Assembly: GCA_034669905.1 (NCBI GenBank)
Contig: JAXMOL010000047.1
Span: 1 to 63,819, forward strand
Origin: Candidatus Hydrogenedentota bacterium
GTDB taxonomy: Bacteria; Hydrogenedentota; Hydrogenedentia; Hydrogenedentales; JAEUWI01
Length of the DNA stretch: 63,819 bases
Reading direction: 5' to 3'
Shown: piece after piece, positions 60,166-63,819 of the stretch
Numbering within the stretch: position 1 is the first letter of the stretch
How the letters are laid out: each line of letters opens with the position of its first letter
Notes under the pieces: generated by a model
Databases searched by the model: none
What the model saw: only the letters and a program-made list of their open reading frames with translations
What the model was told of the DNA's origin: nothing
Program-made: the position numbers and the translations under genes

Positions 60166-60807
60166 GTGGAAACTTCCACCATACCATTTGAGTTGATATC
60201 GCAGGGCGGCTTCCTGATGTGGCCCATCATGTTCTGCTCGTGTGTGGCCATGGCGATTATTATTGACCGCTTTCGCTTCCTTCGCCGGGCCACGATTGAT
60301 ACCCGGGAATTCATGGATACGATGCGGCAGGTATTGCGCCAGAACCGTATCCAGGAAGCCATCAATATCTGCGACGAGACCGACGCCCCGGTGGCCCGCA
60401 TCATGAAGGCGGGTATTTTGAAGAACACCCGCGGCAAAGAAGAAATCCGCGAGGCCATCGAAGACGCCGGTAATCTGGAGTTGCCCCACCTCGAGCGCCA
60501 CCTTTCGGCCCTCGCCACCTGCGCGAACATTGCCCCGCTCCTCGGGCTGCTGGGTACGGTGACCGGTATGATCACCGCCTTCGCCCAGATTCAGAACAAA
60601 CGGGGTCAGGTGAATCCTGCGGACCTGGCCGAAGGTATCGGCAGCGCCCTCGTAACGACCGCCGCCGGGCTGACCGTGGCCATTCCCATCCTGGTGGTGT
60701 ATAACTGGCTCGTGACCCGGGTGGACAATATGGTGGTGGAGATGGAAATCAGCTCGGCCGAATTGGTGGAGCTGCTTACCCGCAACCAGGGCGAACGCGA
60801 GATATAG
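60166..60807 (+). CDS. MotA/TolQ/ExbB proton channel protein
   Basis: APLLGLLGTVTGMI, GIGSALVTTAAGL. Confidence 0.92.
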   Translation: METSTIPFELISQGGFLMWPIMFCSCVAMAIIIDRFRFLRRATIDTREFMDTMRQVLRQNRIQEAINICDETDAPVARIMKAGILKNTRGKEEIREAIEDAGNLELPHLERHLSALATCANIAPLLGLLGTVTGMITAFAQIQNKRGQVNPADLAEGIGSALVTTAAGLTVAIPILVVYNWLVTRVDNMVVEMEISSAELVELLTRNQGEREI

Positions 60808-60811
60808 CGCC

Positions 60812-61249
60812 ATGAAATTCAAGCGCAACAACAAGCGACGCATTGTGGCGAACGTGGAAATGACGCCCCTGATCGACGTGGTCTTTCAGCTGCTGATTTT
60901 CTTCATGCTCTCCTCGACCTTTGTGGTGCAGACTTCTATTCCCGTGGAGATTCCCCAGAGTGAAGGGGCCACCAAGATGGAGCACAAGGAACTTGTTATT
61001 TCCTTGAAGCCCGGTGTGGGTGGGCCCGATGATGAGGGCGAGATCTATGTGGACGAAGTTTCCATGGGCTCCTGGGAAGAATTGTCGAGTACCCTGGCCG
61101 AGTTCAGCCAACGCAAACCGGACGCGGTGGTCTTGCTCCGTCCCGATACCCGTGTCGACTATGGCCGCCTGGTGCGGGTGCTGGGTATCGCCAGCAATGT
61201 GGGGATCGAACATTACGGGTTCGCCGCGCAGCCGCCCTCCGAAGAGTGA
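60812..61249 (+). CDS. ExbD/TolR family protein
   Basis: MTPLIDVVFQLLIFFML. Confidence 0.92.
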   Translation: MKFKRNNKRRIVANVEMTPLIDVVFQLLIFFMLSSTFVVQTSIPVEIPQSEGATKMEHKELVISLKPGVGGPDDEGEIYVDEVSMGSWEELSSTLAEFSQRKPDAVVLLRPDTRVDYGRLVRVLGIASNVGIEHYGFAAQPPSEE

Positions 61250-62121
61250 CGCCTATGGCTAACCCCTCGTCCTCGGGATCCTGGTACCATCGCTTTCGGA
61301 AACGAGAGAGCCAGCGGAGTTTCTACCTGGCCCTGATTGCGTCGGGCATGTTTCATCTGTCCATGGTGACCGTCTTCAGTATCGTGATCTATTTCCCCCG
61401 GGAAGATACGCGCTACTACGACTTCTCCATCGTGCCCCTCCGCACGCCGACAGCGGTGGCAGGGGCCGAAGCGCCGGAAGCGGACACGACGGCACCTGAG
61501 ACGGAAGTGGGTGGGGAGAAGCTGGCCCTCCGTGGTGCCACGCTGCCCGACGTGGAGCTGCCCACCATCGAGTTCGCCGAGTTGGAACGTCTCCGGGTGG
61601 GGCAGGCAGGTTCCCAGTCCCTTTCCCGCTACGACGAAGTTTTCCAGGAAGGCCCTGACGACAGTTGGGAGCGTTTCAGTCGGGGGCTCTCGGAGATGTC
61701 CCGTTCCCTGACGCGCCTGCGCCTGTCGGGCGATGCCCCCACGGACCCGTTGTCATCCGCCCTCAACGAGGTCACCGCGCCGTCCAATCGCATTGTGCAC
61801 CGGCCGGCCGAAGGCTTTGAGGCCCAACTGGTCTGGTCAACGGCACCCTTTGACCGCCAACTGCTCTTTGCGCCGCCCATAGAAGCCCTCTGGGGGGCCG
61901 ACGAGGCTACTTTCCAGCGCCCTGTGGAACTGGTGTTGCAGGTGAATGCCCTGGGCCGTGTGGTGAACGTATTCAGCCCGACGGTGGATGAGCGGGAGTT
62001 GGTGGATGCTATTCAGATGACCACCCTTCGCTACCGCTTTGAGCCCCTGAGTCTGGAATCCGGCGACAGCCAGACGGTGACCCTGCGTATTCAGCGGGAC
62101 ACGGCGGGAGGGCATCCATGA
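61246..62121 (+). CDS. Single-pass membrane protein, possible divergent TonB/TolA-like energy transducer
   Basis: N-terminal TM with S-x3-H (ASGMFH), Pro/Ala/Glu linker, C-terminal VNALGRV...RFEP reminiscent of TonB_C; operon position. Confidence 0.55.
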   Translation: MTPMANPSSSGSWYHRFRKRESQRSFYLALIASGMFHLSMVTVFSIVIYFPREDTRYYDFSIVPLRTPTAVAGAEAPEADTTAPETEVGGEKLALRGATLPDVELPTIEFAELERLRVGQAGSQSLSRYDEVFQEGPDDSWERFSRGLSEMSRSLTRLRLSGDAPTDPLSSALNEVTAPSNRIVHRPAEGFEAQLVWSTAPFDRQLLFAPPIEALWGADEATFQRPVELVLQVNALGRVVNVFSPTVDERELVDAIQMTTLRYRFEPLSLESGDSQTVTLRIQRDTAGGHP

Positions 62122-62492
62122 TTCAGATATCTCTGGGAACGGCCCTCATGGTATACAGCGGCATTATCCTGATTGGTGCCCTCGCCATCTGGATTTATAC
62201 CGAGATCACAACCCGCCGGGCCTACCTGGTCTTGGAGAAGCAATATCTCTGGCGCTGTGTCTTCTGTTCCTACACCTACTTGGACCAGCAAGCCGTCAAG
62301 CACTCGGAATGTCCCCAATGCCATGCGATTAATTCCATGACCGACAAGAAGGCCCGGGTAGTGCCGCCTTCCGGCGCATCGCTGGTGCCGGAATCGGAAG
62401 GGCCCGGCCACGACTCGCGCCACAATCCTTCCAAGGGGAAACGGAAGGGGGCCCGTCACCGGGGCCCACGACGTCGCGGCGGCCGGCGCTAG
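62118..62492 (+). CDS. Small membrane-anchored zinc-ribbon protein
   Basis: N-terminal TM, CVFC...CPQC, basic tail; overlaps the upstream stop. Confidence 0.7.
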   Translation: MIQISLGTALMVYSGIILIGALAIWIYTEITTRRAYLVLEKQYLWRCVFCSYTYLDQQAVKHSECPQCHAINSMTDKKARVVPPSGASLVPESEGPGHDSRHNPSKGKRKGARHRGPRRRGGRR

Positions 62493-63206: not shown

Positions 63207-63223
63207 TTGGCACGGCCTTGGCT
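63207..63223 (+). promoter_or_regulatory. Putative sigma54 promoter for the peptide array
   Basis: TTGGCACGGCCTTGGCT with GG-N10-GC spacing, about 100 nt before the first ATG; AT-rich upstream region. Confidence 0.65.
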
Positions 63224-63320
63224 TTAGGTCTAGACGTGCAACGGGTTGCACGAGGACACGCGCCGCGAGCCAACGCGGCGGCGCAGCAAAAAGCCCTGTG
63301 CAGGGGCGGAGGAATGAGCC

Positions 63321-63503
63321 ATGAAAGACATCAAGGTTACCGAGCTTACGGAAGAAAACGAACTCAGTGCGGAGGAAGCGGCGGCAGTAAAGGGTGGACC
63401 TGCTTACATCAAGATTGGGGACATCAAGGGCGAAGCCCGGCTGTCCCGTCCCACGATTCAGAAGCCCGCCGCGGGTTACACCGAAGTAGAGTGGACGTAC
63501 TAG
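63321..63503 (+). CDS. 60-aa double-glycine-leader precursor peptide with Hcp-like core (copy 1)
   Basis: RBS GGAGGA; leader ...ELSAEEAAAVKGG; core PAYIKIGDIKGEARLSRPTIQKPAAGYTEVEWTY. Confidence 0.8.
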   Translation: MKDIKVTELTEENELSAEEAAAVKGGPAYIKIGDIKGEARLSRPTIQKPAAGYTEVEWTY

Positions 63504-63567
63504 TCCCCCTTCCCATCACGTCGAAACCGAAACAAACGAGCCCTGTGCAGGGGCGGAGGAATGTGCC

Positions 63568-63750
63568 ATGAAAGACATCAAGGTTACCGAGCTTACGGAA
63601 GAAAAAGTGATCAGTGCGGACGAAGCGGCGGCGGTGAAGGGTGGACCTGCTTACATCAAACTGGGCGACATCAAGGGTGAATCCCGGTTGGCCCGTCCCA
63701 CGGTTCAGAAGCCCGCCACGGGTTACACCGAAGTAGAGTGGACGTACTAG
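63568..63750 (+). CDS. 60-aa double-glycine-leader precursor peptide with Hcp-like core (copy 2)
   Basis: RBS GGAGGA; leader ...VISADEAAAVKGG; core PAYIKLGDIKGESRLARPTVQKPATGYTEVEWTY. Confidence 0.8.
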   Translation: MKDIKVTELTEEKVISADEAAAVKGGPAYIKLGDIKGESRLARPTVQKPATGYTEVEWTY

Positions 63751-63814
63751 TCCCCCTTCCCATCACGTCGAAACCGAAACGAACGAGCCCTGTGCAGGGG
63801 CGGAGGAATGAGCC

Positions 63815-63819
63815 ATGAA
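63815..63819 (+). CDS. Start of probable third peptide copy (truncated)
   Basis: Same upstream hairpin and RBS followed by ATGAA at exactly +247. Confidence 0.65.

Follow-up and report, generated by a model that had tools for sequence, protein, structure and literature searches.

Double-glycine leader peptides with cores resembling pieces of Hcp and pilins in a Hydrogenedentota bacterium

Peptides with a double-glycine (GG) leader that are exported by ABC transporters with a C39 peptidase domain (C39-ABC) include class II bacteriocins, pheromones and the NHLP/Nif11 group of ribosomal peptides (RiPPs). In the prochlorosins, many hypervariable cores are placed behind one leader type and served by one machinery acting in trans. 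Another group comprises the CCRG-2 RiPPs; Hcp-like cores are not mentioned in the accessible part of one account of them (PMC8120280). RaxX of Xanthomonas is described, in the accessible part of its source, as a 60-residue GG-leader precursor which is modified by an enzyme, exported by an ABC transporter and sensed by a receptor as a mimic (PMC6637879).

Here we describe a tandem array of short genes located at the end of a 63,819-nt stretch of DNA from Candidatus Hydrogenedentota bacterium (the window), which is an entire contig, C47. The array and its genome share with the GG-leader peptides the leader consensus, the C39-ABC exporter, HlyD, a TIGR04500-like partner and an enzyme with an RRE-like domain. 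The cores look like pieces of Hcp, the tube protein of type VI secretion systems (T6SS). The export chassis is familiar and the cargo principle, pieces of others' weapons, is apparently undescribed: in the literature covered, with subscription papers and preprint supplements outside its scope, nothing was found that describes peptides made of Hcp or pilin pieces, and within that scope the statement of a preliminary description that no system of this kind was known still holds.

Tandem array and its promoter-like site

The array occupies the last 530 bases of the window, on the forward strand, and is built of 247-nt units that are 92% identical. By unit comparison the first unit (63292..63538) comprises a ribosome-binding site and precursor gene 1, a 60-aa ORF at 63321-63503 in the ORF list. 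Gene 2 (63568..63750; leader 63568-63645, core 63646-63747) also encodes 60 aa and is 85% identical to gene 1, and a third unit begins at 63786..63819 with its ATG at 63815. The 26-aa leader of precursor 1 (63321..63398; leader HMM E 3.8e-11) is of the double-glycine type, with L-12, S-11, E-8, V-4, G-2 and G-1. The leaders end in L/I-S-A-E/D-E-A-A-A-V-K-G-G and the 34-aa cores are free of Cys, as had been claimed and as can be read directly from the sequence.

Reading past position 63819, as had been proposed, uncovered further copies, since contig C38 carries the continuation of the array at one end (81366-80855, reverse strand). The first 114 nt of that end overlap the end of C47 with one mismatch, and the join is supported by metagenome contig L030, in which the same two flanks are joined around two copies. 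The C38 part holds one copy of 59 aa and a final one with a frameshift close to its end, as judged from the orthologues, in which the core closes with a typical late Hcp strand. The preliminary count of at least two and probably three or more tandem 60-aa genes is thereby raised to at least four copies, and to at least five if the mismatch in the overlap is real. Because the orthologous loci L030 and L049 carry two copies each, some of the additional copies may have arisen recently or through assembly.

Between copy 1 and its G065 orthologue, synonymous changes affect 16.5 of 41.3 sites and non-synonymous ones 9.5 of 135.7 sites, with zero replacements in both Hcp-like motifs. The array genes are therefore under purifying selection and represent real, selected genes. 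Directly upstream (60166-62492) lie exbB, exbD and two further genes, one for a membrane-anchored protein of 291 aa that belongs to no family and one for a Zn-ribbon membrane protein of 124 aa, a stretch that is kept in L030. These exbB/exbD and Zn-ribbon genes were considered as part of the system and rejected, as the genes upstream differ among the arrays of relatives.

A pattern scan identified a sigma-54 -24/-12 promoter-like site (TGGCAC-N5-TGGC) on the forward strand at 63208..63222, 113 nt before the first ATG, and the site is conserved at -113 in the orthologues L030 and L049. With a pattern loosened after the sites had been inspected, such sites precede five of the six precursor units of the genome at 112-140 nt, against a background of 0.003 per 200 nt. 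The 5' leader RNA of the array folds no better than shuffled sequences (z -1.17). Two marine RNA runs share 0.04 of words with the DNA, and three short contigs from relatives cover the array only, at a depth of about 4-5; two of them stop at 63248 and 63251, just past the predicted start near 63234. RNA contigs of relatives cannot show transcription of this array and were left out of the evidence.

Likeness of the cores to Hcp

The core had been described as two Hcp elements joined by a linker. A single 34-aa core matched no Pfam family at all, had no Hcp match in NCBIfam and matched no Hcp chain in the PDB; the likeness reaches significance only with a profile of the family or of Hcp, so that the expected profile match holds for these profiles and fails for the lone core. 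When a profile of ten cores, built without any Hcp, was compared with 177,635 distinct PDB sequences, six were matched at E<=10, all of them Hcp or Hcp fusions, the best being 1Y12 (E 2.7e-4, residues 9-21 and 125-135). Profile-profile comparison with 23 real Hcp proteins gave E 7.9e-5 for the first strand of the window core and a probability of 93.8% for the late strand. In an ungapped scan with the same 23-Hcp profile the best placement of the first 12 core residues was Hcp position 4 (equalled by 0 of 2000 shuffles) and that of the last eight was position 129 (1-3 of 2000), and no Hcp fit was obtained for the linker (461 of 2000). These tests agree that both ends of the core are Hcp-like and that the linker is not. 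On the forward strand of gene 1 the copy of the Hcp N-terminal strand (module A, by PDB, profile-profile and shuffle comparisons) lies at 63399..63434, the linker, which holds all core amino-acid changes relative to the orthologue, at 63435..63476, and the copy of the late strand (module D, consensus position 129-136, by profile-profile and shuffle comparisons) at 63477..63500. Reciprocally, a profile of 69 peptides searched against 351 Acidobacteriota genomes found 22 places, namely 17 N-termini of full-length Hcp and five peptides.

The source of the modules appears foreign. The first 12 residues of the window core are identical at 10 positions to Hcp L120 and at four to the Hcp of the genome itself, and no gene among its 58 pilin-like ones has the PAVQ form of the pilin stem used in the peptides; an origin of the modules in the hcp and pilin genes of the same genome was accordingly rejected. 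The earlier picture of a miniature Hcp complementing strands proved too narrow, as sister precursors with the same leader carry pieces of DUF1559 pilins, eCIS, tail-tube-like proteins, autotransporters and FG-GAP proteins and weakly EF-Tu-like pieces. Modules are paired in many ways, the two Hcp ends being just one of them, and in one genome the peptides tile almost the whole of Hcp, helix and loops included.

Precursor set, export cluster and wider family

The leader HMM identified ten precursors in the genome, on this contig and five others (E<=1.8e-7, the next match at E 46). Their cores start with the first Hcp strand in six cases, a mid-Hcp strand in two and a DUF1559-type pilin stem in two; one mid-Hcp-strand core matches PF05638 at E 0.021. 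One first-strand core, encoded on C6, holds three tandem copies and presumably ends in a tail-tube-like segment, and the C1 core holds two. The window leader agrees with the L-S-x-x-E-(L)-x-x-I/V-x-G-G consensus, with Ala at -7, and V-K-G-G is invariant in the family alignment. Curated leader models matched it weakly (TIGR04149 E 0.12) and none passed.

Two precursors lie in a cluster on C6 between genes for a Cys-rich protein and a sigma-54 activator and, on the other strand, genes for HlyD, a cNMP-domain C39-ABC transporter and a TIGR04500-like protein. The transporter (C6:27891-31010) has a C39 domain (PF03412 E 5e-38) with visible Cys/His catalytic motifs, ABC domains and two cNMP domains, is adjoined by HlyD and is the sole C39-ABC transporter found in the genome. 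The C39 exporter that had been expected is thus present, in trans to the window array, and a 297-aa ORF on C24 holds another C39-like domain. The TIGR04500-like protein matched at E 6e-13, below the cut-off; proteins of this type are required partners in one graspetide pathway according to the accessible part of PMC13097080. Neither an immunity gene nor a receptor kinase was seen in the cluster, and no LanM/LanBC-type enzyme was present among the six cluster proteins scanned.

The Cys-rich protein (363 aa, C6:23615-24703, with a second member of the family at C3:176243-177313; loci L001, L003) has eight invariant Cys in its N-terminal part and belongs to no Pfam or NCBIfam family. In its structural model (mean pLDDT 76.5) residues 277-363 match RRE domains, best TigE (VIA Z 8.0, rmsd 2.9 over 81 residues) and then MibB, MccB and PbtF, and the modelled C-terminal domain is RRE-like. 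Foldseek with the whole model returned nothing at E<=0.001, and the predicted catalytic part is only weakly similar to YkgJ/CxxCxxCC proteins (PF03692; atlas 0.82, hhalign probability 3%, one of 17 members at E 0.24). Of 135 genomes of the phylum, 10 have the peptides and exactly these 10 have the enzyme; all are close kin. The enzyme also stands beside precursors without Hcp- or pilin-type motifs (L013), and in other phyla members of its family adjoin a radical SAM enzyme and precursors of unrelated kinds. In G188 five precursors form a compact cluster with exporter and HlyD, and the Cys/RRE enzyme was not found in this genome, so tailoring appears variable.

A complete-looking T6SS is encoded on C9 (39438-59491, L006), with TssA, B, C, Hcp, E, F, G, VgrG, J, K, L and M recognized by inspection; Hcp and TssC alone were identified by Pfam. 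This Hcp is the only PF05638 match of the genome, and Hcp is 92-100% identical across the Hydrogenedentota genus. Among the ten Hydrogenedentota producers nine encode a full Hcp themselves, and this genome is one of the nine. Hydrogenedentota loci L073, L075 and L085 encode proteins of 230-255 aa that combine an Hcp domain with a hydrophobic, signal-like segment at the N-terminus.

Homologous leader plus Hcp-fragment peptides, which the preliminary description asked to be sought elsewhere, are widespread. An exact motif scan of metagenomes found 24 loci, 23 of them short GG-leader peptides, and a leader-plus-motif profile retrieved 183 proteins among 1.84 billion; among the 150 listed, 131 were short and 100 had GG followed by the Hcp motif. 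A pilin-core profile retrieved 211 proteins, with GG followed by the pilin stem in all 120 among the matches listed. Among 85 short leader-plus-motif members picked by eye, 11 passed the curated cut-off of PF05638, three that of DUF1559 and one that of the eCIS core; among 114 pilin-core members seven passed that of DUF1559. Sixteen of the 120 pilin-led cores contain a second module from Hcp (0 with a reversed-profile control), i.e. modules from unrelated source proteins are shuffled and fused within single cores. Of other modules TIGR04294 and TIGR02601 passed, DUF5908 came near its cut-off, and matches to EF-Tu and SseB were weak (E about 0.02). Modules may be as short as 9-10 residues, proteins that form no polymers are among the sources, and Cys occurs in 23 of 219 cores. 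A Vibrio-like Hcp subtype is represented among the peptides of G070.

Leader types also vary, CCRG-2 and Nif11 leaders being among them; the CCRG-2 model (NF033456) scored above its cut-off in four of 30 family proteins scanned, with cyanobacterial relatives among those that match, and WP_413743573.1 of Synechococcus sp. MIT S9451, which clusters with a CCRG-2-leader member, passes the Hcp Pfam cut-off. Named carriers are this Synechococcus strain, Sphingopyxis, Parasphingopyxis and Parasphingorhabdus; to our knowledge marine Synechococcus have no T6SS. Other loci pair such peptides with a CxxCxxCC protein, ATP-grasp, methyltransferase or B12 radical SAM enzymes. A word-index search with the window peptide returned only itself (two of three candidates), and its best ESM atlas match (0.87) was to clusters without a name. 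No copies were found in viral contigs (two motif patterns) or in phages and plasmids (tblastn), which points to a chromosomal host trait.

Larger proteins with the motif were also met: among the matches listed, 15 of 19 long hits had 2-15 copies, often behind a signal peptide. P0123, P0124, P0141, P0199, P0201, P0212 and P0260 are long, several with a signal peptide, studded with the Hcp motif, and also hold VgrG-like, FG-GAP, gp19 tube and ribosomal S14 pieces; P0124 comes from a marine eukaryote transcriptome set. The motif copies of P0170 read W where G is expected, which suggests that its organism reads TGA as Gly and that the sequence was translated under another code. ECF sigma factor and/or Ser/Thr kinase-like genes lie near some peptide loci (L150:2904-6507; C28:48486-50489 of this genome; L015:12342-15353) and are possible receptors; such genes are common in these phyla.

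The most elaborate set was found in an acidobacterium, G473, whose exporter, activator and enzyme are 56%, 57% and 32% identical to those described above and whose chassis also includes B12 radical SAM enzyme(s). Its peptides, cNMP-C39 exporter cluster, B12 radical SAM and Cys/RRE enzyme lie at C1:165000-190000 (L190, L191) and about 40 scattered loci. There are 50 matches to its own Lys/Arg-rich GG leader, and at least 41 precursors were recovered from the regions examined. On the Hcp profile 25 of the 41 scored >=22, a threshold chosen just above the maxima of a reversed and an unrelated profile (21.4 and 21.6; 0 of 41); at >=30 the counts were 16 and 0. Jointly these 25 peptides cover 151 of 161 Hcp positions, the closest Hcp proteins of the 20 best are spread over 13 different loci, and four peptides pass the Pfam cut-off singly. 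With the loosened pattern, 14 of the 41 genes have a sigma-54-like site within 150 nt (0.009 expected). As no shared repeats were visible by eye in the 41 flanks and core GC3 resembles leader GC3, there is no sign of a recent mobile cassette. Searches of this genome, which passed an 85% completeness filter, found neither full-length Hcp nor TssC, and T6SS genes missing from G473 and G137 may be merely unassembled.

Possible functions and comparison with known systems

Taken together, the genes make up a library of borrowed motifs that is under selection and presumably regulated, rather than one mini-Hcp inhibitor. In the reading that we favour, to which we give an even chance, the window array belongs, as an orphan, to a sigma-54 regulon whose genes encode ribosomal peptides, and the cores of these act as extracellular mimics, decoys or signals. 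The activator encoded in the cluster would switch on the scattered precursor genes, the Cys-cluster enzyme with its C-terminal RRE may modify the cores, and the cNMP-domain C39-ABC transporter with HlyD would cut the leader after GG and export cores of 15-45 aa. The cores are brief copies of regions that are best conserved in foreign contact and injection machines (Hcp and tail tubes, eCIS, DUF1559 pilins, adhesin repeats), and selection keeps them protein-like; outside the cell they might mimic fragments shed by injection or contact machines and either trigger or, as decoys, saturate motif-detecting receptors of kin, competitors or grazers. The uniform tiling, the several subtypes, the very short pieces, the helical and non-polymer sources and the carriers without a detected T6SS suit the recognition of linear motifs better than a single structural mechanism. 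The reading also accords with the ten precursors that share one leader in this genome, with its sole C39-ABC exporter beside two of them, with the joint occurrence of peptides and enzyme in 10 of 135 genomes, with the like chassis and the Hcp tiling of G473, with the foreign likeness and fused modules of the cores, and with the precedent of RaxX. Against it, these genomes are close kin and nine of the ten producers hold their own Hcp, which would equally fit a role tied to the own T6SS; the enzyme occurs beside motif-less precursors in L013 and was not found in G188. A bolder form, an "epitope library" of captured foreign hcp, pilin, eCIS and adhesin fragments exported by diverse bacteria under sigma-54 control as an artificial digest of attack machines that alarms kin, or that jams or misleads the pattern receptors of rivals and grazers, we put forward tentatively, at somewhat below an even chance.

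Selection keeps the pieces recognisable, so something should read them, be it receptors that respond to fragments of T6SS and pilins or a step of assembly open to blocking by short peptides. As assembly poisons, the cores would take the place of a native strand or helix in Hcp, tail-tube, pilin or translocon subunits and cap or derail the polymers of rivals. In favour of this, modules are exact structural elements of polymer-forming proteins, variants span several Hcp subtypes, including the Vibrio-like type, and the viral, phage and plasmid searches yielded no copies. Hcp and tail tubes assemble in the cytoplasm, however, so an exported peptide would need an uptake route, and near-uniform tiling beyond a few strands, pieces of 9-10 residues and non-polymer sources fit poorly; we regard this as rather unlikely. 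Somewhat less likely again is a diversity library like that of the prochlorosins, with gene fragments as raw material or enzyme tags and a modified product (e.g. Lys-methylated) that hits an unrelated target. The RRE-bearing enzyme with its weak YkgJ/CxxCxxCC lead, the varied tailoring enzymes beside other loci and the use of CCRG-2 and Nif11 leaders are in its favour, but random material should drift, whereas the modules retain their likeness to Hcp with a codon use like that of the host, and the motif after GG is the same in different phyla while the tailoring enzyme varies or is missing.

Self-assembly, with cores stacking into amyloid-like fibres or Hcp tiles rebuilding a split Hcp-like fold outside the cell, is suggested by the tandem strand motifs (three in the C6 core, two in the C1 core, 2-15 copies in 15 of 19 long hits among the matches listed) and by the near-complete tiling in G473. 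The tiles overlap redundantly and come from different Hcp subtypes, the genes are scattered, most genomes encode few modules and pilin modules are helical in their source family, all of which makes this quite improbable. That chance likeness, pseudogene debris or an assembly artefact is involved is barely credible: a single core lacks Pfam and PDB Hcp matches, a contig break interrupts the array and a frameshift affects its last copy, yet shuffle and reversed-profile controls, curated cut-offs passed by relatives, purifying selection and orthologues in other assemblies speak against it, and for the family it is already refuted.

If the epitope library exists, it would imply a widespread and unrecognised sensing of T6SS-tube and pilin peptides. 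The family gives a lead on the nature of some CCRG-2 peptides, small "Hcp" annotations in metagenomes can be GG-leader peptides of this kind, and producer lineages exist in culture (Synechococcus, Sphingopyxis, Parasphingopyxis).

From the other GG-leader/C39-ABC peptides the system differs in that its cores copy pieces of unrelated structural proteins, its precursors are scattered under sigma-54 sites, its cluster showed neither an immunity gene nor a receptor kinase, and the window leader passes no curated leader model. The CCRG-2 RiPPs of Prochlorococcus and Synechococcus are defined by an 18-position leader model only, and the window peptides fall outside it (no match to NF033456 at E<=10). 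Nor are these peptides Hcp/TssD proteins (PF05638, 1Y12): they are 60-aa leader-type precursors without a PF05638 match, encoded outside the T6SS cluster on C9, and the window core keeps about 20 of 160 residues. With the prochlorosins they share many cores, one leader type and one machinery in trans, and are set apart by borrowed motifs in place of free variation; Cys-free window cores and no LanM/LanBC in the six C6 proteins place them outside lanthipeptides. As an analogy that claims no relation in sequence, RaxX appears to be the nearest functional precedent for an exported mimic; as far as its accessible account goes, RaxX mimics one plant hormone, whereas the family described here comprises tens of peptides per genome that copy bacterial and phage-type machine proteins.
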